The notes below the pieces were generated by a model. It was given only the letters and a program-made list of their open reading frames with translations, had not been told where the DNA came from and did no database searches. A stretch of 64,000 nucleotides of DNA from a virus, in UHGV virus genome UHGV-1378516; one strand, written 5' to 3'. How positions within the stretch are numbered: position 1 is the first letter of the stretch; each line of letters begins with the position of its first letter. The translations under genes and the position numbers were made by a program. Of this stretch, positions 1 through 61,936 are shown one piece after another.

Positions 1-2413
1 CACCTGTTGTATTCGTTACACCAGACCAGTTTCTTGATGCGTTGAAGTTGACAGGGATACCTTTAGTAAAGTTGTTACCAGTATACCCTTTAGAACCTGC
101 CTGACTACCGAGGTAGAATGCACCACTTGCTGTGTAGAAGCCACTAGCGTCACTTCTGAAGTAACCAAATGAACCAGTAATCTCCATAGTACCTCTGTTG
201 TGGTTGTGGTTACCAGTTGTGCTAGAAGTCTTAGTACCATAGTCAAATGATGAAGTAGTAGCAGAGAAGCTGTGCGTGTGTGAAGGTAAGTTACCAACAG
301 ACAGCGTTACAGAGTCTGAACCACCAGTTGTAGCAACATCTGAACCGTTTGCTGCTGCAATTCTAATAGTTCTACCAACACCATTATTCAGGTACGTCCA
401 AGTTAACCCAGGAAGTGCTGTGTTTGGGTTGACATTACTGTTAAACCACGTCACAATACCTACTGGATAGATTTTATTCAGGTCTGTAGAGTCACTAATT
501 GCTTCTGCAATCTTCTGGTCAGTTTCTGCTTTAGTGTATGCACCAATATCTGAAGGGGTTGGTTTTTGCAAACTTGTGTAGTATTTTGCAATTGTACCCT
601 TCACAATACCTTGTGGAGCATCATCAAATGTCTGTGGGACTTCAAACAACTGTACACTTGCATTACTAGAAGACTGAACCCTTGTCGTTGTGCTGTTTTG
701 ATACGTACCAGCAAGATAGTAAATATCATAGGTGTCTCCAGAAGTATTCACATAACCAATATCCCTGACAATGGTGTTCTCTGATGTTCTCCAAGCAACA
801 ACATTTAAGCCCTTTGGATTGTTATTTGAAGTTCGCAGAACAATTTCACATTTACCTGCTTGGTTTGGTGTATTAATATTAAAACCTGACCCACCAAATA
901 CCTCAATAACAGCAGTGGATGCTGATTGTGGCATCACAACAGTGGCAATTTTAGCCCACTTATCAGTGTTTCCCACATTGAAGCTAGTGCTTCTGATTCT
1001 TAGGTATCTACTATCACTAGCACTTTGCGTAAAGTATCTAGCATCTAAGTTAGAGAAATCTGAAGGTTGAACTTGTCCAGCAATAGTCAATGTTTTGTTA
1101 ATGTATGATGTTGTATTCCCGAGAACCAATTGGGTTCCAGAATAACTGTTATTTAGGGTAACATCATTCGTATCAGCACCACCAACACCAATCCACCATC
1201 TTGATACATTAGCAGTGTCCACACCACGAATATATAATGGTCTATTCTGAGTAGAGTTTTTAACAATCAGACCTTCATTATCAGTAACAACTGTCTGTAC
1301 ACCATTAAAAGTATTCCTTGCATTAGTTCTTGCAATCGTACTTAATGTTGCTACCGGAATATATCTAGAGTCAATGTTAGCCCAATCTGAAGGTTGGACT
1401 TGTCCAGTGATTTGCACAGTTTTATTGATACCAATAGCAGTACCTAGTGAAATCTGTGAACCTGTAAGGTAGTTATAAATATTTAGACGTGTTTCGTCAG
1501 AATCTGTACCAACATACCATTTATTTGTTCCATCAGACTTCTTACCGAGAATGTAAAGTGCTGTACTTGCATCAGTATTCTGCAAAGTAATAGCATTAGC
1601 ATTCTTCTTAACAACAAGGTTAGTGAAAGTGTTAGCACCTGTAAAAGTGTTATTACCAGCTAACTGTGCAAATCTCTGATTAGCAACTGTCTGAGTGAAG
1701 TATCTAGCATCTAAGTTAGAGAAATCTGAAGGTTGAACTTGACCAGTGATTGCTAAAGACTTATTCACAGAGATGTTGCTTGCAATAGTCAAGGCTGAAT
1801 TGTATTTGTTATTATATAACTTCACTTCATCAGAGCCATTACTACCAATACCAACCCACCATCTAGCTGAACCATCTAGGTTTACACCTTCGATATATTG
1901 TGCATTATTTGCATTTTGGTTCCTAAGGCGAAGTAAGTTAGCATCACCTTGAATATTTTGAGTCCCAGAGAATGTGTTTGTGACAGCAAGTCTTGCATAT
2001 CTCGCATCATTCTCTTCATTAGTTCTCATACCAAGTTCATTAGGGCTTGGTTTATTCAAAGTATGATAAACAGTTGCTGACCTTGAAGCATCTGCAATAG
2101 TGAGTTTAAGACCATTTGAGTTAAGTTTAAAAGTCTTTAAAACATCCCCAATAGTAATTTCAGAAGAACCTGTAGGGTCAAATACAGCCTTGCCACCGTA
2201 AAGTAACTTGACAATACCTAAATCACCCGTCATAGTGCTACCAGCAATCTGAACAAACCTTTCTAGTTTGAAGGAAGCTAAGAAGTCTTGATAGGTCATT
2301 CTACGGTCTTCGTCACCCAACATTTCAGGTCTTTTCTTAACTCTGATGTGCAATAGGTCTTCTGAACGAATTGTGTCGATTGAGTTTAATTGACTCAATT
2401 TGTAATCTGCCAT
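1..2413 (-). CDS. tail fibre protein, 5' portion (gene continues past window start)
   Basis: Minus-strand frame open from ATG at 2413 (SD AAGAGGA upstream, in-frame stop at 2438-2440) to position 1; absent from ORF track because it has no in-window stop; hand translation shows internal repeats (..GQVQPSDFSNLDARYF..) and HTHS/NHNHN His motifs near the window start. Confidence 0.6.
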   Translation of the reverse strand, partial: MADYKLSQLNSIDTIRSEDLLHIRVKKRPEMLGDEDRRMTYQDFLASFKLERFVQIAGSTMTGDLGIVKLLYGGKAVFDPTGSSEITIGDVLKTFKLNSNGLKLTIADASRSATVYHTLNKPSPNELGMRTNEENDARYARLAVTNTFSGTQNIQGDANLLRLRNQNANNAQYIEGVNLDGSARWWVGIGSNGSDEVKLYNNKYNSALTIASNISVNKSLAITGQVQPSDFSNLDARYFTQTVANQRFAQLAGNNTFTGANTFTNLVVKKNANAITLQNTDASTALYILGKKSDGTNKWYVGTDSDETRLNIYNYLTGSQISLGTAIGINKTVQITGQVQPSDWANIDSRYIPVATLSTIARTNARNTFNGVQTVVTDNEGLIVKNSTQNRPLYIRGVDTANVSRWWIGVGGADTNDVTLNNSYSGTQLVLGNTTSYINKTLTIAGQVQPSDFSNLDARYFTQSASDSRYLRIRSTSFNVGNTDKWAKIATVVMPQSASTAVIEVFGGSGFNINTPNQAGKCEIVLRTSNNNPKGLNVVAWRTSENTIVRDIGYVNTSGDTYDIYYLAGTYQNSTTTRVQSSSNASVQLFEVPQTFDDAPQGIVKGTIAKYYTSLQKPTPSDIGAYTKAETDQKIAEAISDSTDLNKIYPVGIVTWFNSNVNPNTALPGLTWTYLNNGVGRTIRIAAANGSDVATTGGSDSVTLSVGNLPSHTHSFSATTSSFDYGTKTSSTTGNHNHNRGTMEITGSFGYFRSDASGFYTASGAFYLGSQAGSKGYTGNNFTKGIPVNFNASRNWSGVTNTTG

Positions 2414-6266: not shown

Positions 6267-11650
<5,384 letters not shown>

Positions 11651-23350: not shown

Positions 23351-23426
23351 TGGAGAATCCGAAGGGACTCGAACCCTTATAAACCTGTTTTGCAGACAGG
23401 CACATAGCCATTTCTGTCACGGATTC
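23351..23426 (-). tRNA. tRNA-Cys (GCA)
   Basis: Hand fold: CCA encoded, T-arm AAGGG-ACTCGAA-CCCTT on plus, 5-bp anticodon stem, loop gives GCA. Confidence 0.7.
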
Positions 23427-23430
23427 AAAT

Positions 23431-23523
23431 TGGAGGAAGATACCAGACTTGAACTGGTACACCGATTTCTCAGCTACTGGCAGTTTAGCAAACTGCTCCC
23501 TTACCTTTTAGGGTTAATCTTCC
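23431..23523 (-). tRNA. tRNA-Ser (GCU), long variable arm
   Basis: 93 nt; T-arm ACCAG-ACTTGAA-CTGGT; perfect anticodon stem GCAGT/ACTGC; matching acceptor. Confidence 0.7.
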
Positions 23524-23525
23524 AT

Positions 23526-24260
23526 TTATTTCTGTAATACGTTCTTCATTTCTGGTGTTGCAATAGTGTCAATTACACCAGTTTTACAAGCATCATCAAA
23601 CCAGTCTGGTAAGATACCTGCTAAGAACCCATTGATATTCGTTTTAAGGTACTCTGCAATAAGAGCAGCTTCTTCTTCAATCATCTGCACAACTTCATCT
23701 GCATAAGCTGTAATTTTTGAAATACCTTCATTAATCTTACTAACAGCTTGGTTAGCTAAATCAGAAATAGTATCAAGACCTTTGTCAATAGCGTCTTGTA
23801 AGTCACTTAATACATCATTAACACCGTCTAGTGCACTGTTAATCGTATCAATAGCTTTTTGACCATACTCTGTAGCAACACCCATAATACCACTAAATGG
23901 TGTACAACCAACTTGTTCACCTGCTGCACCCATAACATTAGAATAGCCTTTTGCTACCTGCATACGTGATGAGAACTCATCAATGGACTTTTGACCGTAA
24001 TCTGTCAGTGTTTTGGTAGTTGATGTAGTGCTTGTCAGACTCGTGGTAAAGCTGTTAAGCAGAACTGTTGTGAGTCCAGCAGCAACAAGCTTATCCTTTA
24101 CTGTAGGGTCTGATACAGAGCTAATAGAGCTTACAAGTGATGTAGAGGCAGCTACGGTTCCGCCGAGAACTGCTGCACCAGTAATAAGGGGGTTAGAAAA
24201 CCCTTTACCAGTTTTTAAGAGATTGAAAATCTCCTTACCTTGTTCTGTCATCTCTTTCAT
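23526..24260 (-). CDS. hypothetical Ser/Thr-rich protein embedded in tRNA array
   Basis: Track ORF 23526..24323 begins with GTG overlapping a tRNA; trimmed to in-frame ATG at 24260. Confidence 0.45.
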   Translation of the reverse strand: MKEMTEQGKEIFNLLKTGKGFSNPLITGAAVLGGTVAASTSLVSSISSVSDPTVKDKLVAAGLTTVLLNSFTTSLTSTTSTTKTLTDYGQKSIDEFSSRMQVAKGYSNVMGAAGEQVGCTPFSGIMGVATEYGQKAIDTINSALDGVNDVLSDLQDAIDKGLDTISDLANQAVSKINEGISKITAYADEVVQMIEEEAALIAEYLKTNINGFLAGILPDWFDDACKTGVIDTIATPEMKNVLQK

Positions 24261-24276
24261 TAAGCACCTTTGAAAT

Positions 24277-24353
24277 TGGTAGTCCAGTGGGATTTGAACC
24301 CTCTTCTCATGTTTTTCAGACACGCGCTTTAACCATATAAGCTACTTGGACTA
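24277..24353 (-). tRNA. tRNA-Phe (GAA), tentative
   Basis: T-loop ATTTGAA; perfect acceptor pairing; anticodon stem has one mismatch. Confidence 0.5.
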
Positions 24354-24358
24354 TAAAT

Positions 24359-24435
24359 TGGGGTGACCTACGGGATTTGAACCCGTATAGACCATGTTCA
24401 CAGCATGGGTCATTACCATTTATGATAAGGCCACA
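24359..24435 (-). tRNA. tRNA-His (GUG)
   Basis: Perfect T-stem ACGGG/CCCGT and anticodon stem CCATG/CATGG; loop gives GUG. Confidence 0.7.
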
Positions 24436-24465
24436 TTTAAGGACTCTCGTAAGAATCCTTAGAAG

Positions 24466-24541
24466 TGGCAGCGGCATAAGGATTTGAACCTTAATAGGAC
24501 AGCTTCAGAGACTGTTGCATTGCCAGTTATGCTATACCGCT
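24466..24541 (-). tRNA. tRNA-Gln (CUG), tentative
   Basis: T-arm TAAGG-ATTTGAA-CCTTA; anticodon loop gives CUG; D-arm GCAT/ATGC. Confidence 0.55.
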
Positions 24542-24546
24542 AAATT

Positions 24547-24618
24547 TGGTACTCCATATCGGATTCGAACCGATACATAACACAGATTTTAAGTCTGGCC
24601 TCTCTGCCAATTGGAGTA
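24547..24618 (-). tRNA. tRNA-like, atypical (short D-arm; anticodon possibly UAA)
   Basis: Clear T-arm ATCGG-ATTCGAA-CCGAT and acceptor pairing but only ~72 nt; anticodon arm ambiguous by eye. Confidence 0.35.
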
Positions 24619-24627
24619 ATGGAGCAT

Positions 24628-24703
24628 TGGCGGGGGATGTTGGAATTGAACCAACTTCTTCGATTTCAAAGACCGAGGTTTTAACCTTGTAAACTAATCC
24701 CCT
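24628..24703 (-). tRNA. tRNA-Gln (UUG), tentative
   Basis: T-arm GTTGG-AATTGAA-CCAAC; anticodon loop gives UUG. Confidence 0.55.
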
Positions 24704-24711
24704 TTAAATCT

Positions 24712-25269
24712 TTACTTTCTTAGTGGATGAATAAAGAATGCCAACATAACTCTTTCCCTTGAGAATGCTCTTTCTTCTGGGACAACGCTTTTAAGTTTCC
24801 ACCCAACATAAATTCTCCAGTAAAATTGTTTACCAAAGATTTTGATTGATGGCACAAAAGCGAATAACCCCCAAGCATTACTGTTCCACATTAGGAGATA
24901 ACCAGTTTGATTATCTTCAGGGTTAGAACTTACGTTGATATTACCTTTCCACTTAGTAACGTCTTTTACATCTCTTCCTAACACATGGTAAGAGAAGTTA
25001 TAAGCTTTGTTTCTCCAGAGCCATCCAACTCTCTGCATGTAGACACCAAGCTTACCAATCTTTCTAATCTTAGCCCATCGTTTGATATGACCTGCATCAC
25101 CATCAATTGGGTTGTCATAAGTCTCCATCCATCTGAACCCGAAAGGCAAGTGTCCTTTCTTCTCACTGTAGAATGGAACTACAAAAGGTGCTAAGATAAC
25201 TGCTAAGATTGCTGCAAATGGCTCTAACAAAGCTAAGAAAATCCATGAAGCATACTTTAAGTATCTCAT
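24712..25269 (-). CDS. hypothetical membrane protein embedded in tRNA array
   Basis: 185 aa, hydrophobic N-terminal segments (..WIFLALLEPFAAILAVILAPFVVPF..). Confidence 0.5.
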   Translation of the reverse strand: MRYLKYASWIFLALLEPFAAILAVILAPFVVPFYSEKKGHLPFGFRWMETYDNPIDGDAGHIKRWAKIRKIGKLGVYMQRVGWLWRNKAYNFSYHVLGRDVKDVTKWKGNINVSSNPEDNQTGYLLMWNSNAWGLFAFVPSIKIFGKQFYWRIYVGWKLKSVVPEERAFSRERVMLAFFIHPLRK

Positions 25270-25508
25270 TGTCTAATCCTCGTAAGGAGGTAAATGTTAT
25301 TATTAGTTTCTAAACCTTCTGGTAAAACTGTCTCAAAAATAACACTCTTCAGATGTCTACCACCAAAACAATCACGTATAAATCTTTCTACTCTAGCGGG
25401 GTCACATAAGTATCCCACTTTTAAGAAAATGTGGTGTTCAACACCAATGACCCTGACAAACTCAATACTCTCACAGTTTTCATGTTCAACTACTGTTAAT
25501 GTTTGCAT
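25266..25508 (-). CDS. hypothetical protein
   Basis: 80 aa, ATG at 25508, stop/start overlap with downstream ORF. Confidence 0.45.
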   Translation of the reverse strand: MQTLTVVEHENCESIEFVRVIGVEHHIFLKVGYLCDPARVERFIRDCFGGRHLKSVIFETVLPEGLETNNNIYLLTRIRQ

Positions 25509-25525
25509 AGTATCACCTTTTTATC

Positions 25526-25601
25526 TGGCGCAGGATAAGGGATTCGAACCCCTATTAACAGCTTCGTAGACTGTTGCTCTTTCCATTTGAACTAATCCTG
25601 C
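25526..25601 (-). tRNA. tRNA-Arg (ACG)
   Basis: T-arm AAGGG-ATTCGAA; anticodon loop gives ACG; perfect acceptor. Confidence 0.65.
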
Positions 25602-25606
25602 AAAAT

Positions 25607-25684
25607 TGGTGTTCCAAGACGGATTCGAACCGTCACTAATACAAGGTTTGAGCTTGCATCCTCTGCCAATTGGGATACTGGAAC
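25607..25684 (-). tRNA. tRNA with anticodon CAA (Leu-type) but short variable arm
   Basis: Perfect T-arm GACGG-ATTCGAA-CCGTC; 5-bp anticodon stem with U33/A37 gives CAA; A73; only ~78 nt. Confidence 0.5.
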
Positions 25685-25685
25685 A

Positions 25686-25760
25686 TGGTACTCACTAAAG
25701 GACTTGAACCTTTTTCTTCATCTTGTAAGGGTGATGTTTTACCATATAAACTAAGCGAGT
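25686..25760 (-). tRNA. tRNA-Val (UAC)
   Basis: T-arm AAAGG-ACTTGAA-CCTTT; anticodon stem TCATC/GGTGA; loop gives UAC. Confidence 0.65.
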
Positions 25761-25856
25761 ATGAAAGAGGTCTGGAGTTGTGCCGCTAACTCAACTCCGT
25801 GGAATTTGTTACGGTCTTCAGTTGACTCAAAGCGGTCTTTCACTTGACCTCTGAAT

Positions 25857-25932
25857 TGGTGCTCCCACAAGGACTCGAACCCTGATAAGTTGCTTACAAG
25901 GCAACCGTAATAACCAATTATACGATAGGAGC
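25857..25932 (-). tRNA. tRNA-Thr (UGU)
   Basis: Perfect anticodon stem GTTGC/GCAAC; loop gives UGU. Confidence 0.7.
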
Positions 25933-25939
25933 ATTAATT

Positions 25940-45628: not shown

Positions 45629-46414
45629 TTAGTTCTTTGCGTCTAAGAAGGTAACTTCTGGCGAAGAGAAAACTGTCTCAATATCCTCATCAGTTCTTGC
45701 ATAGATGTAAGTGTCTGCATCACTGCCAAATGTTACTGCAATCCTGTGATTGCTCTTCGACAGGTGGGTAACTAGAGCGTTACTTAGAGACATCTTTTCA
45801 ACCGGAGGGTTACTTTGATGTATCTTACCTTTTCTTCGTCTGAAGAGGGTAACTGCATTATCCGTGAACACAACTACACCTGCGAAGTATTCTGGTTCAC
45901 AGTAGTTCTTCCAACCTGAGCGTAACTTGTGGTACATCTCTCCTTCATAGACATATAGATAAACATCTACACTCTTCATTGCCTGATTGATGATAACTGT
46001 GACGGCTTGAGGGTCCAACCCACCGATACCTGCACCAATCATAGGTAAACCAACTTTCTTCAACTGATTAACTTCACAGTATCTGTTAAGCTGTTTCAAA
46101 GATGACTCTAAAGCACTGTATCGGGCATCTTTACCAGTCTTAAGCTGAGTGTAAAGGTTAGCTATACGGCCTTGTTTTACACGTGCTACAGAGAAATTAC
46201 CCAGTAAATTTTCACAGGGTTTGTGTCCTATACCACCTGCATATAGATAAACTTCTGTATCGGTCTCATATGCTTTTGGGTAAAGTTTAGAAATCTTGTC
46301 AGCGATACCTGCACCCATTAAATTCATACAGTTGCAACCGTGACCGATGATGTCAAACTTACCTTTATCAAATGCGGAAAAGATATCACCGTTGATAATT
46401 TTTACAATACCCAT
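45629..46414 (-). CDS. macro domain-containing protein (ADP-ribose binding/processing family) with C-terminal extension
   Basis: 261 aa; N-terminal ..IINGDIF..DIIGHGCNCMNLMGAGIA.. matches macro-domain core in register. Confidence 0.55.
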   Translation of the reverse strand: MGIVKIINGDIFSAFDKGKFDIIGHGCNCMNLMGAGIADKISKLYPKAYETDTEVYLYAGGIGHKPCENLLGNFSVARVKQGRIANLYTQLKTGKDARYSALESSLKQLNRYCEVNQLKKVGLPMIGAGIGGLDPQAVTVIINQAMKSVDVYLYVYEGEMYHKLRSGWKNYCEPEYFAGVVVFTDNAVTLFRRRKGKIHQSNPPVEKMSLSNALVTHLSKSNHRIAVTFGSDADTYIYARTDEDIETVFSSPEVTFLDAKN

Positions 46415-53861: not shown

Positions 53862-53882
53862 AAAAAGGCTCCCGTAGGAGCC
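53862..53882 (-). terminator. rho-independent terminator after NAMPT-like gene
   Basis: Minus-sense GGCUCC-UACG-GGAGCC + U5. Confidence 0.6.
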
Positions 53883-53897
53883 TCTTATCATATACTT

Positions 53898-55679
53898 TTA
53901 AAGTTGCTTGTCAATATTATTTCGAATATCACCAAGAGTTGTGTAGCCGAACTGCTCAGAGTCGCTAAAGACTAAACGTAAAGCACAAGCTGGATGCTCA
54001 AGTGCATCTGCAAAACTCTGGAATCCATAGCCATCTACAGCTTTCAGGTTCTCACCATCCCACATAGGGGCTACACCACCAAAAGCAGACTTCTTAATAC
54101 CACTGTCTGTTTTAGGGTCTTTTGCAAGCATAATCTCTTTACCACCAATACTTGCAAGAGTTGCTTTGACAGCAAATGCAAAGGTGTCACGAGTCATGTA
54201 CTGGTAAGTGTAAGAACCTACACCAAACACTACGTTAGAGCTTGCAAAACCCATTTCATACAAACGCTTCAGGATTTCGTTTGCACGTTCCAACGTGATA
54301 GAGTCACCATAGATAAGGCCAATGTGCTCATCCAGTACCTTAAACCCTTTAGAGTTGATAGTTCCTCCAAAGATGTTATACAGTGTCTTGATAGCTCCAT
54401 CAATCTCCGCTACAGGACGTGTTACAACGTTTGCAGAACCAACCATATAAGCATTTTTCAACATCACTGTATCAGCAACTTCAAAGTCTTCTCTGTCAAC
54501 AACCATTTCGTAACCTTCTGACAGTAGCCATCCAGCAATACCATAATTGATGTTTTCAAGCTTCATGTTCAGAACAGCATTCAGCATTGTGTCGCTGGCT
54601 TCCAGCTTACTTAGGTGTTCGTAATAAGCCTTTTTAGCACACTCTAAATGGATTGCTTTGTATCCTGTGACAATATGTACAGGGTCTCCAGAATCAGGAC
54701 GAATTACCAGTTTGCCATCACGTTCCATAATCTCTTTACGGAGTTCTGGCAATATGACTGATACAGTTCTCCAGAAGTTATAAGTATCTGAAACAACACT
54801 TGCAATACCAGTTGGGTAAGTTTCTGTTAAGAAACGACGGAAGGTTTGTAACTCACCTTTAAAGCGTCTTTCTTCTTCAATCAACTCGTTACCACCTTCC
54901 CAAGCAATGTTTGCACACATTACAGAATGTTCAGTGGCTGGTACAGAACTACCAATATCAGAGATTTGGTAGGACTGTCCATAGATGCGTTTAGCTGTAT
55001 ACACAGCAGGGAAGCTATCAGTCCCTTTAAAGCTTGTTAAGTGACCTACAGCGTTAAATGCGTCATCAGTAAAGCCGGACATACCACGCATAGCAAAATC
55101 ATGGCACTGATAAGGTAAATGTAAGTCATTGTCACAAGTAAGGTCAGCCCACTTCTTACAGATGCGTTTGTAATGCAATGCAATAGTTGCAATGGTGCAA
55201 GCCTTCCAAATTTCAGCAGAGAAAGCATCTTCCAGATAACCTGCTACCCAATGAAAACCTGAAACAGTGTTCTGAAAGACAATCATCGGGACACGCATTG
55301 GAACAACTGTGCCTTCTTCTACAGCGTATACTTCAACTGGTAGATAACCTAAGTCGTGAAGTGCTTCCCAATGCTCTCGACCGATAGCATCTTTACCCAG
55401 AACACCATTCATGACTTCTAAGATTTCATCAATGGCTTCTTTTTTATCACGTTCAAAGAAAGTGGCATTCCAGTGGTCTATCAAGTAATCTTTAACAAAA
55501 CGTTGAATACCAAAAGCCACTACACCGTCAATTGCTAAAGGGCTGTTAAACCATTTATCACTACGTGGTGTTAGGTTGAACATCAAGTACTCTGTTGCGC
55601 TAGGATACTGGTAAACATGACCAGATTTGTAAGCATCTGCATTTAAACCTGCTGGTACTGCATAAAGTGATTTAGTCAT
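53898..55679 (-). CDS. nicotinamide phosphoribosyltransferase-family enzyme (NadV/NAMPT-like; possibly Namat-type)
   Basis: 593 aa; N-terminal ..YKSGHVYQYP.. and overall size/organisation of NAMPT family; adjacent to PRPP-synthetase-like gene. Confidence 0.65.
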   Translation of the reverse strand: MTKSLYAVPAGLNADAYKSGHVYQYPSATEYLMFNLTPRSDKWFNSPLAIDGVVAFGIQRFVKDYLIDHWNATFFERDKKEAIDEILEVMNGVLGKDAIGREHWEALHDLGYLPVEVYAVEEGTVVPMRVPMIVFQNTVSGFHWVAGYLEDAFSAEIWKACTIATIALHYKRICKKWADLTCDNDLHLPYQCHDFAMRGMSGFTDDAFNAVGHLTSFKGTDSFPAVYTAKRIYGQSYQISDIGSSVPATEHSVMCANIAWEGGNELIEEERRFKGELQTFRRFLTETYPTGIASVVSDTYNFWRTVSVILPELRKEIMERDGKLVIRPDSGDPVHIVTGYKAIHLECAKKAYYEHLSKLEASDTMLNAVLNMKLENINYGIAGWLLSEGYEMVVDREDFEVADTVMLKNAYMVGSANVVTRPVAEIDGAIKTLYNIFGGTINSKGFKVLDEHIGLIYGDSITLERANEILKRLYEMGFASSNVVFGVGSYTYQYMTRDTFAFAVKATLASIGGKEIMLAKDPKTDSGIKKSAFGGVAPMWDGENLKAVDGYGFQSFADALEHPACALRLVFSDSEQFGYTTLGDIRNNIDKQL

Positions 55680-55724
55680 CTTTTAATCTCTCTCAAAATG
55701 GGGCTTGGAAGCCCCTATAAAGTT

Positions 55725-56621
55725 TTAATCAAGGTTTGCTACAGTAACTTGGCTATAATGTGTTAAGCCACGGTCTTTAGCTTCCCCTAAAGAGTTTGTA
55801 GTGTAGATATGGTCAATGCCATTGTCAAGCAAGTTTTCAACATCTTTAGAGAAGATACCATGTGTTACATAGAGTTCCACACGTTTTGCACCTGCTTCAC
55901 GAAGATGCTTAGCTGCTTCTATGAAGGTTCGACCACCATCACAGATATCATCCAGAATCATGACGGTTTTATCTGTCAAATCAACATCATCAAGGATTCG
56001 CATACCAGTAATTTCACCAGTCTTAAGGTTACGCACCTTAGACATTGTGATATATGGTTTATCCACCTCTTTAGCGGTCTCTGCAACCTTCTTAGCAGCA
56101 CCTGCATCTGGGGCTACTAAGTAATCAACCAGTGGGTCATTTGCATAGTGGACTGCAATTTCCTTTTGAGGAATACTCTGGAAGCAGTTAAACAGGTTAT
56201 CTGGAACGTAACTGTGAGGGTCAACTGCACAGACTGCACCAAATCCCATTGCATTTACCTGTTTAGCAAAAACCTTCAAAGCTGCTGCGTCGCCTTTAAA
56301 CATGTGACGGTCATAACGTGCATTTGGTAAGTAGTAAAAGATGACAGTCTTTAAAGCATAATCATGAGGAATTAAATCATCAATTGCTTCTTTAGCAAGT
56401 GCCACAGCAAACAATGTATCCTTATCATAACCTTTTACAATCATAATCACATTGTTTATGGATGATGCTGCATAAGCAGTGAAATCAACAAACTCTGGCG
56501 AAAAGTGTCCACCAATCTCACCAGAAGGAAATTGGATGATGTTAAACTCCTCTTCATGAGTTCCTTTAGTTGGTGAATGAACTGTAACACGGATAGATGT
56601 TTTCATAGTTTTCTCTCTCAA
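55725..56621 (-). CDS. ribose-phosphate pyrophosphokinase-family enzyme (Prs-like; possibly Adps-type)
   Basis: 298 aa; PRPP-binding-loop-like ..VMILDDICDGGRT..; first ATG may be at Met6. Confidence 0.65.
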   Translation of the reverse strand: MREKTMKTSIRVTVHSPTKGTHEEEFNIIQFPSGEIGGHFSPEFVDFTAYAASSINNVIMIVKGYDKDTLFAVALAKEAIDDLIPHDYALKTVIFYYLPNARYDRHMFKGDAAALKVFAKQVNAMGFGAVCAVDPHSYVPDNLFNCFQSIPQKEIAVHYANDPLVDYLVAPDAGAAKKVAETAKEVDKPYITMSKVRNLKTGEITGMRILDDVDLTDKTVMILDDICDGGRTFIEAAKHLREAGAKRVELYVTHGIFSKDVENLLDNGIDHIYTTNSLGEAKDRGLTHYSQVTVANLD

Positions 56622-56896
56622 TCAAAAGTTACGTTTGTTACTGCCATTGCAGATTTGCATTTTGCAGGGTCTACAACGTGATAAAGTACACTACAGTTAC
56701 CTGTGCTGTCTGGTACAGGTTTAACCCATTGTTGCTTGACAGTTGGTTCGCCTAAGTCTTTGTAAGAACCATCTGTAAAGTTGTTTACCATCTCAAGTGC
56801 GATTGGCTCTGGAACATGACCACGTATCATGTACATTTCACAACCATTGCCTCCTTCACTGACTAATGGTAAAATCTCCCACTTTTCTTTAGCCAT
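56618..56896 (-). CDS. hypothetical protein
   Basis: 92 aa. Confidence 0.45.
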   Translation of the reverse strand: MAKEKWEILPLVSEGGNGCEMYMIRGHVPEPIALEMVNNFTDGSYKDLGEPTVKQQWVKPVPDSTGNCSVLYHVVDPAKCKSAMAVTNVTFD

Positions 56897-57404
56897 TATA
56901 AGTTGCCCTATAAACTATCTCGAACTTCAACAGGAGAGATATTGCCAAATCTGTATAGTTGTTGTCAAGCACATCTGGCATATTATTTTTGATATATCTC
57001 TCTTGCTCTTCATAGGTCATCTTAGGGGCACTTAAAAGGCTATCTCCTTGCTTCTGGTTATCAGCTTTAGTCTGAATAAACCAGTTTGCACAGTGATGTT
57101 CACCACCTTTTGTAACAGGTTTGTGGTGGCCTAATGTGAAGGATTGACTGCCTGTGTATCTGCAAAGTTTATTGAGTACTGTAATGGTGTTCTTCACAAC
57201 AAAACATTCATACAGGTTGTCTATGGTGTAGTGTGGATAATATCGAAATAATGCTCTTTCACGAGTACTCTCACGATTCCAGAGAATCATGTGATTGGAG
57301 TTGGAAGGGTCGTATTGGTGGGAGTCAATGAACTCTTGACGTTCCTCAAAACTGAGTCTTAACACTGACATTGCAGCAGAACGTTTCAGATTTGACAGAT
57401 ACAT
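56889..57404 (-). CDS. HNH-family endonuclease (putative homing endonuclease)
   Basis: 171 aa; ..GHHKPVTKGGEHHCANWFIQTKADNQ.. His/Asn pattern. Confidence 0.5.
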   Translation of the reverse strand: MYLSNLKRSAAMSVLRLSFEERQEFIDSHQYDPSNSNHMILWNRESTRERALFRYYPHYTIDNLYECFVVKNTITVLNKLCRYTGSQSFTLGHHKPVTKGGEHHCANWFIQTKADNQKQGDSLLSAPKMTYEEQERYIKNNMPDVLDNNYTDLAISLLLKFEIVYRATYNG

Positions 57405-57455
57405 ATTATCTCCAAAATAAAAAGGGAACCTTTACAGTTCCCTTATAGTATCTGC

Positions 57456-59791: not shown

Positions 59792-61936
59792 TTACATAGA
59801 AACTCTGTCACGAATCTCAGCGATTTTTGCATCGTTCATTCGGGATTCACCTTTAATCTTAGTCCATCCAAGATACCCACACACTCTGTTAATCACAGAG
59901 ATATCATGTGAGTGACAAACTTCACACTCTTCAACATCTGATTTTGGTCTGTTACCACAATGCTCACAGATTGCTAAGTCAAAGTTAAGTCCCTGATAGA
60001 AACCTTTCAACATACCTCTGGTAATACAACTTTTAAGTGCTGATAAGTTTTCTGGGTTAGCTACTCTTACATACTGGATTCTACCGCCTCTACAGATATG
60101 GAAGTATGGCTCTTCTAAGTCCTGCTTCTCAAATGGCGAGATGTCTGCTGCAACATTCATATGGAAACTGTTTGTAAAGTATTCCTTATCGGAAACACCT
60201 TTGATAACCCCAAACATATCTCTGAACTGTTTTAGCTGAGTCCCACATAGTGATTCTGCTGGAGTACCATAGACGGCATATAAGAAGCCATCTTCATTTT
60301 TAAACTCTTCGGTTTTCATGTTGATGTATGCCAGAACATCATATGCAAAACTATAGCTTCCAACTTCATGAAGTCGTTTACCTTCAGCAAGAACAGACAA
60401 CTCATCAAGCGCAGTAACACCAAAAGAAGCTGTGAAGGACTTCACAATATCCCAACCAACCTTGTCAGTAGGTTTCTTAGTTCCTTTGTACAGACCACCT
60501 TGTGTGAATGCAAGAGGGTTAGAACTTGCTGGCATATTAGCAATCATTTCGTAGCGTTTCTTATGGAAACTACGAATCATCTCTAGGTACTTATCAAGCT
60601 CTTTCCAGAAATCTAAACCATTCTCTTTAGAATACTGGTAAATCATTGGTAAGTTCAAAGATACAGCACCAATGTTAGCACGACCAACGTAGAACTCTTC
60701 TCCACCCTCATTAAGATATGGAGATAAGAAAGCTCTACAACCCATCGGTGAAATTACCTTACCAGAACGCTCAAAAGCCTCTGCTACAGCACCATGACCA
60801 GACACACTTAAGAAATCTGGGTACATTGCTTTAGAGCAACACTCAATAGCTTTACTGTACAGGTGACCTTGACAGATATTTTCATCATGTCTCTTCTGGT
60901 CATAAATATAAACCAGTTTAGGGAATACAACAGGTTTTTTGCTCTTGCCTTGTCCATTCATACGAACATCTAGGAGAGTACTTGCAATCATGTATTGTAG
61001 TCGATTATCCTCATTAGACATATCTGAGTCAAGTAAACCAAATGTTAAAGTTGTGAATGCAAAATCACCACGGCTACAAGGTACGGTATTTAGTTTCATC
61101 TCAAGTGACTGAAAACCTTGAGTCAGTTCAATTTGTAACTGCTCCATTACATAATTGTGGTAATGCTCTTTAGGAATACCATAAGATGATGCTTTCTCAG
61201 CATGATAGCGTAGAGACTTCTTAGCATACGGTACAAGTACCTTATCAATCTCTGCTAAAGTAAAACCACCAAATTGCTGTGCAGTTGCTGAAAGTACTAC
61301 GTCACCAATAACCTGCAACGCTGACAGTACAGATTTAGGTTCACAGTACTCAATGCCGGACATTTCAAAGCCACCTTTTAGTACTTTACCAATGTCAAAC
61401 AGGCAACAGTTAATACCACCAAAAATCAGGTCTCTCAAATCGTGGATATAGATAAAGCCTTTCTCAATGGCTTCAAGTTCCTCTGGTGTTAGATGATACT
61501 GTTTAAAGATTTCTTTAGTCAGGTAACCACGGATAATTGAACCTTTCGTAGAAATTAAACTGCTGTCAAAGTTAGCATTTTCACGGTCACCTAAGAAGAG
61601 TGTGTCTCTAGTCTTTTGGTAAAGTTCATCCCAATTTTGAGCAACCTCTTTACGGTAATTTCTGTATGTTGAGTAAGACTCGTAAATCTCGTGATTAACT
61701 TCTGCCAAAGCACCCTCAACAATACTGTGAATATCATTTACTGAAATGAGCAAATTATTCTGCTTAGTGGACTTTACCAGAATCCTCATGAATGCTGACT
61801 CAAGAGCTTGGGTAACATCTGGTGGCAGTTCTTTATATCCAACCCTGTTAGCTGACTTTGTTACTGCCGCTAAAACTTTTTTGATATCAGGTTCTTCAAG
61901 TGAGCCATTCTTTTTAATAATCTGTACTTTGTTCAT
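59792..61936 (-). CDS. nrdD: anaerobic ribonucleoside-triphosphate reductase
   Basis: 714 aa; C-terminal glycyl-radical motif ..RVCGYLG.. and Zn-ribbon cysteines ..CEHCG..CEVCHS.. Confidence 0.85.
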   Translation of the reverse strand: MNKVQIIKKNGSLEEPDIKKVLAAVTKSANRVGYKELPPDVTQALESAFMRILVKSTKQNNLLISVNDIHSIVEGALAEVNHEIYESYSTYRNYRKEVAQNWDELYQKTRDTLFLGDRENANFDSSLISTKGSIIRGYLTKEIFKQYHLTPEELEAIEKGFIYIHDLRDLIFGGINCCLFDIGKVLKGGFEMSGIEYCEPKSVLSALQVIGDVVLSATAQQFGGFTLAEIDKVLVPYAKKSLRYHAEKASSYGIPKEHYHNYVMEQLQIELTQGFQSLEMKLNTVPCSRGDFAFTTLTFGLLDSDMSNEDNRLQYMIASTLLDVRMNGQGKSKKPVVFPKLVYIYDQKRHDENICQGHLYSKAIECCSKAMYPDFLSVSGHGAVAEAFERSGKVISPMGCRAFLSPYLNEGGEEFYVGRANIGAVSLNLPMIYQYSKENGLDFWKELDKYLEMIRSFHKKRYEMIANMPASSNPLAFTQGGLYKGTKKPTDKVGWDIVKSFTASFGVTALDELSVLAEGKRLHEVGSYSFAYDVLAYINMKTEEFKNEDGFLYAVYGTPAESLCGTQLKQFRDMFGVIKGVSDKEYFTNSFHMNVAADISPFEKQDLEEPYFHICRGGRIQYVRVANPENLSALKSCITRGMLKGFYQGLNFDLAICEHCGNRPKSDVEECEVCHSHDISVINRVCGYLGWTKIKGESRMNDAKIAEIRDRVSM

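Follow-up and report, generated by a model that had tools for sequence, protein, structure and literature searches.

Two neighbouring genes in the 64,000-nucleotide stretch of viral DNA analysed here (UHGV virus genome UHGV-1378516, hereafter the window), which is assigned to Felixounavirus, very probably form the NAD+ reconstitution pathway 1 (NARP1) operon of a Felix O1-like phage. Both lie on the minus strand: adps (55725..56606; 293 aa), for the Prs-like ADP-ribose pyrophosphokinase that is the first NARP1 enzyme, and namat (53898..55679; 593 aa), for the NAMPT-like nicotinamide ADP-ribose transferase that is the second. The assignment draws on gene identity, orthology, synteny, the retention of published functional residues, the predicted fold and purifying selection, all observed for the window pair. 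An initial annotation of the locus had proposed just such an Adps/Namat reading, which is now supported by synteny with phage Bas63, by the identity of the two proteins to their Bas63 counterparts (98% between Namat and gp80, a 77-aa insert included, and 78% between Adps and gp79) and by the conservation of functional residues. The system is already characterized, and our result is a confirmation and an annotation rather than a new finding.

Among sequenced phages, about 4% carry NARP1 (859 pathways were counted across 20,185 genomes), and it allows them to evade numerous unrelated NAD+-depleting defences simultaneously. Once it is recognized in a genome, host range can be predicted for strains that carry SIR2-HerA, DSR, Thoeris or SEFIR, a prediction that is useful for choosing therapeutic Felix O1-like phages, and the assignment corrects the misleading names 'ribose-phosphate pyrophosphokinase' and 'nicotinamide phosphoribosyltransferase'. 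The sole forward-looking element of the window is a Macro-domain gene that is not linked to the operon.

Gene calls and collinearity with Bas63

The two reading frames are adjacent and co-directional, as was evident at first reading, and are separated by a 45-nt spacer; what changes is the start of the Prs-like gene, first read as 55725..56621 from a TTG at 56621. Its coding sequence is most likely 55725..56606, beginning at the ATG at 56606, because the TTG shares bases with the stop codon that ends the preceding reading frame, GAGAGAGAAAACT precedes the ATG and the shorter product agrees with annotated orthologues of 293 aa. The pair is matched by 257 phage records, the top one at 97.4% nucleotide identity, and 97% of Adps-clade genes have a Namat gene as a neighbour. 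An Rfam scan returned tRNAs only.

The region is collinear with genes 64-88 of Bas63 (JohannRWettstein), and the pair occupies the position of bas63_0079 and bas63_0080. It is therefore the positional orthologue of genes 79-80, in which NARP1 was discovered through deletion, NAD+ measurement and the detection of ADPR-pyrophosphate (ADPR-PP) (bioRxiv 10.1101/2024.02.11.579819). The two loci share genus, genomic position, gene order, protein lengths (293 and 593 aa) and every functional residue. They differ in that bas63_0081, a small gene directly downstream of namat, is missing from the window, and in the N-terminal domain of Adps.

The Prs-like protein resembles phage Adps

The PRPP-binding-loop signature that had been recognized by eye in the Prs-like protein is present as MILDDICDGGRT, and the protein matches Pribosyltran (8e-12) and Pribosyl_synth (4e-10) in Pfam and phrog_619 (8e-97) among the PHROGs, with PADLOC returning only generic matches to the PRTase fold (ShosT/PsyrT). 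In the PDB set searched, which contained no Adps structure, its best matches are canonical Prs enzymes. It is 32% identical to the Adps proteins of ICP1 and SPbetaL1, both biochemically validated enzymes, versus 23% to E. coli Prs. When scored against NCBIfam, it falls below every Prs equivalog cut-off (41-105 bits against 296-536; 104.8 against 296 for the best of these models); the one model that it clears, at 124.5 versus 113, is TIGR01251, which describes a broad subfamily, while the E. coli Prs control reached 423-533 bits in the same scan. The protein has 293 aa against the 315 of E. coli Prs, and the alignment stops about 20 residues short of the Prs C-terminus; Adps thus appears to be without the C-terminal α11-α12 filament/regulatory module of PRPS, the absence of which is a signature of the Adps family (PMC13586617). 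Judged from its sequence, this member of the Prs superfamily falls in the Adps clade of phages and apart from the canonical PRPP synthetases.

Functional residues were mapped by alignment, with the ICP1 Adps sequence taken from GenBank. K190 aligns with K162 of SPbetaL1 and K185 of ICP1, the β-hairpin catalytic lysine that is essential in both enzymes; R97, H131, D167, D219, D220 and D223 fall in the columns of ICP1 R87, H121, D161, D212, D213 and D216; and F26 aligns with the ADPR-site residue F18 of ICP1. A second ICP1 contact, F92, is replaced by Met102, a methionine in Bas63 too, and the PP loop reads CDGGRT, compared with CDGAAS in ICP1 and SSFGGT in SPbetaL1. Inspection of ribose-5-phosphate (R5P) versus ADPR-binding residues, which the initial annotation had put forward as a way to tell the two activities apart, found the ADPR-site residues present and the R5P ligands not lost. 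Loss of the latter is a poor discriminator, because structures of ICP1 Adps show the ancestral acceptor site kept and reused for ADPR (PMC13586617).

The N-terminal domain of the window Adps (residues 1-165; 56112..56606, minus strand) is a divergent allele, with 61-80% nucleotide identity to Bas63 between flanks at 90-99%, and amino-acid identity is 67% here compared with 93% for the C-terminal domain. Because only 67% of residues are shared in this domain, the window Adps and the tested Bas63 enzyme are not nearly identical where the protein touches the adenine end of ADPR. Relative to Bas63, adps has a dN/dS of 0.07-0.10, indicative of purifying selection; the value for the N-terminal domain is 0.07 with saturated dS, which rules out positive selection as the origin of the divergence and is consistent with an old allele that was transferred by recombination. 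The domain, which falls into three allele groups within the subfamily and is dimorphic, might serve in regulation or in the evasion of inhibitors.

Namat and its selectivity clamp

The product of 53898..55679 had been assigned to the NAMPT family, and profile searches agree, with matches to NAPRTase (2.2e-34) and NAMPT_N in Pfam and to phrog_448 'nicotinamide phosphoribosyl transferase' (5e-202). Profile and structure comparison with characterized Adps/Namat and Prs/NadV proteins, a check suggested at the outset, sides with Adps/Namat for both genes: Adps fails the Prs equivalogs, and the best sequence and structure matches of Namat are the crystal structures of SPbetaL1 Namat (9w5w/9w5x; E 1.5e-128), its predicted fold aligning to 9w5x with a TM score of 0.95 (normalized to the target). 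The catalytic H193, together with R327 (SPbetaL1 R306), is unchanged across 49 homologues, and the dN/dS of namat relative to Bas63 is 0.04, again indicative of purifying selection.

The adenine 'selectivity clamp' is likewise present. The clamp helix, SYTYQY, supplies Y490 and Y494 as the aromatic pair matching F392/Y396 of SPbetaL1, at a position where bona fide Nampts have GALLQK (Xcc 7yqo) or AQTYQR (HdNadV 9ke8), and the clamp loop, PRSDKWF, is of the lysine-then-aromatic type (K42-W43), which is the form described for Bas63 Namat. The window pair thus has the two-enzyme architecture, catalytic residues and clamp in common with the NARP1 systems of SPbetaL1 and ICP1, but shares only 32% of residues in Adps and 47% in Namat with them, has a clamp loop of the K-W rather than the Arg type and adds a 77-aa mini-domain to Namat.

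This insert (residues 351-427; 54399..54629, minus strand) is lineage-specific: it is absent from SPbetaL1 and ICP1 Namat, and the 254 phage records that contain it are all Felix O1-like (Ounavirinae). The length at this site varies among homologues. The insert has no sequence match in Pfam or the PDB, is predicted to be a folded α/β mini-domain (AF2 pLDDT 93-97) and might also act in regulation or inhibitor evasion.

Proposed pathway and alternative readings

In the proposed pathway, a host defence (SIR2-HerA/Nezha, DSR1/2, type I Thoeris, SEFIR or similar) would split NAD+ into ADP-ribose (ADPR) and nicotinamide. Adps would move the β-γ pyrophosphate from ATP onto the distal ribose of ADPR, at its 1'' position, forming ADPR-PP, and Namat would replace the pyrophosphate with nicotinamide to yield NAD+ directly, without the need for a host NMN adenylyltransferase. 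The expected outcome is phage replication in cells with NAD+-depleting defences. For the window pair, both the chemistry and the anti-defence phenotype are expected by analogy with its orthologues, from Bas63 in vivo and from SPbetaL1 and ICP1 in vitro and by structure. Deletion of genes 79-80 costs Bas63 about 20-fold in plating on SIR2-HerA and abolishes both NAD+ maintenance and ADPR-PP (m/z 720.010) (bioRxiv 10.1101/2024.02.11.579819). The conversion of ADPR and ATP to ADPR-PP, and of ADPR-PP and nicotinamide to NAD+, was carried out in vitro solely with homologues from SPbetaL1 and ICP1, which are 32% identical; the Adps of Bas63 was never purified.

The best-surviving alternative, also raised in the initial annotation, is plain salvage, in which the Prs-like enzyme would make PRPP, the NAMPT-like enzyme would make NMN and host NadR or PncC would complete NAD+, as a NARP2-like or housekeeping boost. 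It is suggested by the Pfam, PHROG and NCBIfam names ('ribose-phosphate pyrophosphokinase', 'nicotinamide/nicotinate phosphoribosyltransferase'), by the R5P-type acceptor ligands kept in the window Adps and by the NMN that Namat still makes from PRPP in vitro. We nevertheless consider it very unlikely. For the Bas63 orthologues it is excluded by experiment: counter-defence is kept in a ΔpncC ΔnadR host and ADPR-PP is seen only when the operon is present, while SPbetaL1 Adps gives no PRPP-synthetase product and Namat favours ADPR-PP over PRPP (bioRxiv 10.1101/2024.02.11.579819). Within the window, which is part of the genome, a Pfam scan of 79 ORFs found no strong NMNAT or Nudix family among the best 25 of 44 families. 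Although the window pair belongs to the same superfamilies (phosphoribosyltransferase type I; type II NAPRTase/NAMPT) as NARP2 of Vibrio phage KVP40 (Nampt/NadV plus NMNAT) and canonical Prs/NadV salvage, its Prs-like member is probably an Adps rather than an NMNAT and, unlike canonical Prs, fails every Prs equivalog threshold, and its Namat carries an aromatic adenine clamp that the solved NadV/Nampt structures (HdNadV 9ke8, Xcc 7yqo) lack. Since Namat keeps some PRPP-to-NMN activity in vitro, salvage through NMN may make a minor contribution alongside NARP1.

Least credible is the idea that the Prs-like enzyme lifts PRPP for phage nucleotide synthesis with the NAMPT-like gene as an unrelated passenger, which would suit the surrounding nucleotide-metabolism genes (NrdD, NrdG, NrdA/B, thymidylate synthase and DHFR) but sits badly with the 45-nt linkage here, the tight linkage in every relative examined, the existence of fused Adps-Namat proteins (phrog_12872) and the NAD+-specific phenotype of the Bas63 deletion (bioRxiv 10.1101/2024.02.11.579819).

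A Macro-domain gene outside the operon

Beyond the NARP1 pair, a gene at 45629..46414 (minus strand), 7.5 kb downstream of namat and about 12 genes off, encodes a protein of 261 aa whose N-terminal part is a Macro domain (PF01661, 1.3e-7), an Adpp-like 'phosphatase' that is a candidate accessory. It matches phrog_335 (7e-113), the PHROG that also includes the Adpp homologue encoded within the operon of Vibrio phage Wyman, and its top PDB matches, OARD1/TARG1, are the same as for the Adpp homologue. Identity to published NARP1-associated Macro proteins is 29-36%, with the invariant residues in common. PADLOC returned a DarG-like match for this protein.

The point of comparison is NARP1-AP of Vibrio phage Gary, an operon of Adps, the Macro phosphatase Adpp, which acts on ADPR-1''-phosphate, and Namat. 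Its Adps and Namat are homologous to those of the window, and the window genome has a Macro protein that shares PHROG 335 and the Pfam family PF01661 with Adpp; unlike Adpp, however, this protein is encoded outside the operon, has an extra C-terminal region of about 100 aa and is only 29-36% identical to the operon-linked proteins. No Macro domain was found in neighbours within ±3 genes of the pair, the gene at 45629..46414 falls outside the ±2-gene rule of NARP1-AP, and the published table of NARP1-associated Macro proteins contains no Escherichia or Salmonella phage.

We put forward, tentatively and with the odds against it, that Felix O1-like phages run an NARP1-AP-like pathway in trans, the Macro protein converting the ADPR-1''-P of aRES (RES-domain) systems into ADPR for Adps. 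The group would then have been scored as plain NARP1 because the NARP1-AP survey counted Macro genes only when at most two genes from NARP1. If this is true, the share of aRES-proof phages is underestimated, and, more generally, if the Macro gene feeds NARP1, rules based on operon proximity under-count extended pathways.

Upstream genes and predicted hairpins

Immediately upstream of adps lies a 92-aa gene (phrog_4726; 56618..56896, minus strand), possibly co-transcribed with it, and beyond this a 171-aa gene of a family of unknown function (phrog_3500; 56889..57404, minus strand). The latter had been described as an HNH endonuclease gene adjoining the pair, a description that does not hold: the 92-aa reading frame intervenes, the only HNH evidence is a weak match of residues 59-123 to phrog_2214 (E 1.4e-4), and a Pfam search finds no HNH domain. 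The 171-aa gene is a conserved syntenic gene with a counterpart in bas63_0077 and is not obviously a mobile insertion. It has no obligate link to NARP1, because its homologues in rV5-like phages (phage alia, for example) lie tens of kb from adps. The records with homologues of the 92-aa protein are all from Felix O1-like phages, and with the rV5-like homologues of its neighbour so distant, a functional tie between NARP1 and either gene is unsupported.

Two terminator-like hairpins on the minus strand enclose a four-gene block comprising the 171-aa and 92-aa genes, adps and namat. One, at 57422..57444, lies upstream of the 171-aa gene; the other, at 53863..53886, immediately follows the stop codon of namat, together with a T-run, and has a folding energy of -17.4 kcal/mol (z -3.4), equalled by none of 200 shuffles. 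Within the adps-namat spacer, at 55700..55715 (minus strand), the sequence reads as a GC-rich hairpin, GGGGCU-UCCA-AGCCCC, followed by AUUUU and folding at -13.7 kcal/mol (z -2.3). It is a possible attenuator or weak terminator, and the annotation of phage AYO145A places a rho-independent terminator at the same position.

A NARP1 operon in a Felixounavirus

Two co-directional minus-strand ORFs were found where the initial annotation had placed a Prs-like and NAMPT-like pair: adps, encoding a Prs-like phosphoribosyltransferase (ORF 55725..56621; PF00156 8e-12, PF14572 4e-10, phrog_619 8e-97) that contains the motif MILDDICDGGRT, and namat, of the NAPRTase/NAMPT family (53898..55679; 593 aa; PF04095 2.2e-34, PF18127, phrog_448 5e-202). 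The observation is confirmed, apart from two small corrections. At 56621 the TTG runs into the stop codon of the ORF upstream, and the ATG at 56606 has a purine-rich stretch upstream and fits the 293-aa annotation in all relatives, so that the start moves to 56606 and the coding sequence of adps is probably best given as 55725..56606.

NARP1 is already known as a system, in which Adps converts ADPR to ADPR-PP and Namat joins this to nicotinamide to form NAD+. It was discovered in the BASEL phage Bas63 (JohannRWettstein), a Felixounavirus, in which a mutant lacking genes 79-80 plated about 20-fold less well on SIR2-HerA and no longer maintained NAD+; ADPR-pyrophosphate was seen only with the operon plus the defence system, and the operon effect was independent of host pncC and nadR (bioRxiv 10.1101/2024.02.11.579819). 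The window is collinear with Bas63 (MZ501086) from NrdB to past rIIB, and the pair occupies precisely the position of bas63_0079/0080, with Namat 98% identical to gp80 (580/593) and Adps 78% identical to gp79 (229/293). Bas63 differs in carrying an extra 114-aa gene directly downstream of namat (bas63_0081, 9509..9853 of Bas63 locus L004), which is absent from the window (at about 53845), and in having NrdD split by an intron that carries a homing endonuclease; NrdD of the window (59792..61936) is uninterrupted.

With the pair as query, 257 phage records were matched (best identity 97.4%), almost all from Felix O1-like phages of Escherichia, Salmonella, Shigella and Citrobacter, and a 25-kb query gave the same picture. 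A minus-strand array of 26 tRNA genes (23351..28562; ARAGORN, 24 confirmed by Rfam), rIIA/rIIB and NrdD/NrdG are likewise typical of Felixounavirus.

Bas63 orthology, synteny, functional residues, and family and structure tests support the proposed NARP1-type Adps/Namat pair, and with it the reading of these genes as a NARP1 operon closely orthologous to the founding example. Plain PRPP/NMN salvage, the alternative, is excluded by experiment on the orthologues, and conflicts both with the clamp residues of the window Namat and with the failure of the window Adps to reach Prs equivalog thresholds.

Adps residues, family models and alleles

Structures of Adps from Vibrio phage ICP1 define a catalytic K185 (equivalent to SPbetaL1 K162), an acceptor site of R87, H121, D161, D212, D213 and D216, and an F18 contributed by the neighbouring protomer, in a protein without the PRPS C-terminal alpha11-alpha12 module (PMC13586617). 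In an alignment of the window, Bas63, ICP1 and SPbetaL1 proteins with E. coli Prs, K190, R97, H131, D167, D219, D220, D223 and F26 of the window Adps occupy these functional columns, all ICP1 catalytic and acceptor-site residues being retained, and the protein ends about 20 residues short of the E. coli Prs C-terminus. ICP1 F92 is replaced by Met, as it is in Bas63. Loss of ribose-5-phosphate ligands, which the initial annotation had put forward as a discriminator from Prs, would fail to tell the two apart, since Adps puts the ancestral acceptor site to new use (PMC13586617).

Of the Prs models, the window Adps reaches the cut-off of the broad TIGR01251 subfamily model alone (124.5 bits vs 113) and fails all Prs equivalog models (at most 105 bits vs cut-offs of at least 296), whereas E. 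coli Prs scored 423-533 bits in the same scan on the subfamily-level models TIGR01251 and NF002320.

Both genes are maintained by purifying selection, as shown by dN/dS values against Bas63 of 0.04 (namat), 0.07 (Adps N-terminal domain) and 0.10 (Adps C-terminal domain). Relative to Bas63, the window carries a divergent N-terminal-domain allele (56112..56606, minus strand): over the initial ~500 nt of adps nucleotide identity is 61-80%, against 90-99% in the flanks, with an abrupt change at the start codon, and the domain has 67% amino-acid identity with dS saturated. At least three such alleles occur in the subfamily, and the two within the genus differ more than alleles between genera, a pattern that suggests recombination, not positive selection. 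The window allele, commoner among tblastn matches, differs from the Bas63 allele that was tested.

Namat clamp and insert

Structures of SPbetaL1 Namat show a Nampt-like core (catalytic His, R306) with an adenine 'selectivity clamp', made of an F392/Y396 helix and a loop whose stacking residue is Arg in SPbetaL1; Bas63 has Lys and then an aromatic there (PMC12774641). The window Namat has H193, R327, K42-W43 and the clamp helix S-Y490-T-Y-Q-Y494; at the helix position, two bona fide Nampts of solved structure, aligned by the same search, read GALLQK (Xanthomonas, 7yqo) and AQTYQR (HdNadV, 9ke8). An AlphaFold2 model built on a 49-sequence alignment (mean pLDDT 93.9) matched the Namat crystals 9w5x/9w5w best (TM 0.95 on target), followed by HdNadV and mammalian NAMPT.

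Residues 351-427 (54399..54629, minus strand) form an insert of about 77 aa that is absent from SPbetaL1 and ICP1 Namat and found in Felix O1-like (Ounavirinae) records only. It is predicted with high confidence to fold as an alpha/beta mini-domain and belongs to no recognisable family, with no Pfam or PDB sequence relatives found; its insertion point is a length-variable hotspot (15-94 residues among Namat homologues), and we found no discussion of it in the NARP1 papers cited.

Many homologues of the window Namat, 495-497 aa long and 40-49% identical to it, come from chromosomal contigs of multi-megabase size in Klebsiella, Cronobacter, Kosakonia, Phytobacter and Kluyvera. Every one of them retains the aromatic clamp helix, consistent with reported bacterial NARP1-like systems.

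An unlinked Macro-domain gene

A T4 Tk.4-like Macro-domain protein of 261 aa is encoded on the minus strand at 45629..46414, 7.5 kb from the pair. It combines an N-terminal PF01661 domain (1.3e-7; phrog_335, 'phosphatase') with a ~100-aa C-terminal region of unknown function, and its Bas63 orthologue, bas63_0095, carries the annotation 'putative phosphatase'. According to a 2026 preprint, RES-domain defence (aRES) yields ADPR-1''-phosphate, which NARP1 cannot use, and 15% of NARP1 operons additionally encode Adpp, a Macro phosphatase by which ADPR is restored (the variant NARP1-AP); the survey covered only genes within two of NARP1, and its supplementary tables contain no Escherichia or Salmonella phage. 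The window protein shares PHROG 335, its Pfam family and its top PDB relatives (OARD1/TARG1) with the operon-embedded Adpp homologue of Vibrio phage Wyman, itself 89.8% identical to the characterised Gary Adpp, and is 29-36% identical to the listed NARP1-associated Macro proteins, with invariant residues in common.

It is possible, if rather doubtful, that this protein feeds NARP1 in trans, as a trans-acting NARP1-AP. We offer this as a hypothesis rather than a finding because T-even-like phages, whose records were missing from the sampled Adps matches, also commonly carry Tk.4-like Macro genes of this family, and because of the window protein's further resemblance to DarG-type ADP-ribosyl glycohydrolases (weak similarity to DarG and TARG1).

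Genomic neighbourhood

Terminator-like hairpins on the minus strand (57444..57422 and 53886..53863) bracket four genes, encoding a 171-aa protein, a 92-aa protein, Adps and Namat; no evidence was found that ties the two upstream genes functionally to NARP1. The former (56889..57404, minus strand) is the 'HNH endonuclease' that had been placed next to the pair: the 92-aa ORF lies between, and the HNH likeness is weak (phrog_2214, E 1.4e-4), with no Pfam HNH domain found.

The 45-nt adps-namat spacer holds a small GC-rich hairpin followed by AUUUU (55700..55715, minus strand), weaker than the two bracketing hairpins; the equivalent site in phage AYO145A is annotated as a rho-independent terminator, and the hairpin could hold namat expression down relative to that of adps. 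Of the sigma-70-like matches in the region, the strongest (TTGACA-16-TATGAT, 11/12; 53887..53914, minus strand) overlaps the namat stop codon, directly before the hairpin at 53886..53863.

In a PHROG scan of 53898..56606, Adps matched the first half of phrog_12872 (547 positions) and Namat the second half, implying that proteins fusing Adps to Namat occur in nature. In Suspvirus SUSP1 (991..1079 of locus L010), adps is directly followed by a gene annotated as an HNH endonuclease, in the position taken by namat in the other relatives examined, which shows that mobile insertions are tolerated at the adps-namat junction.
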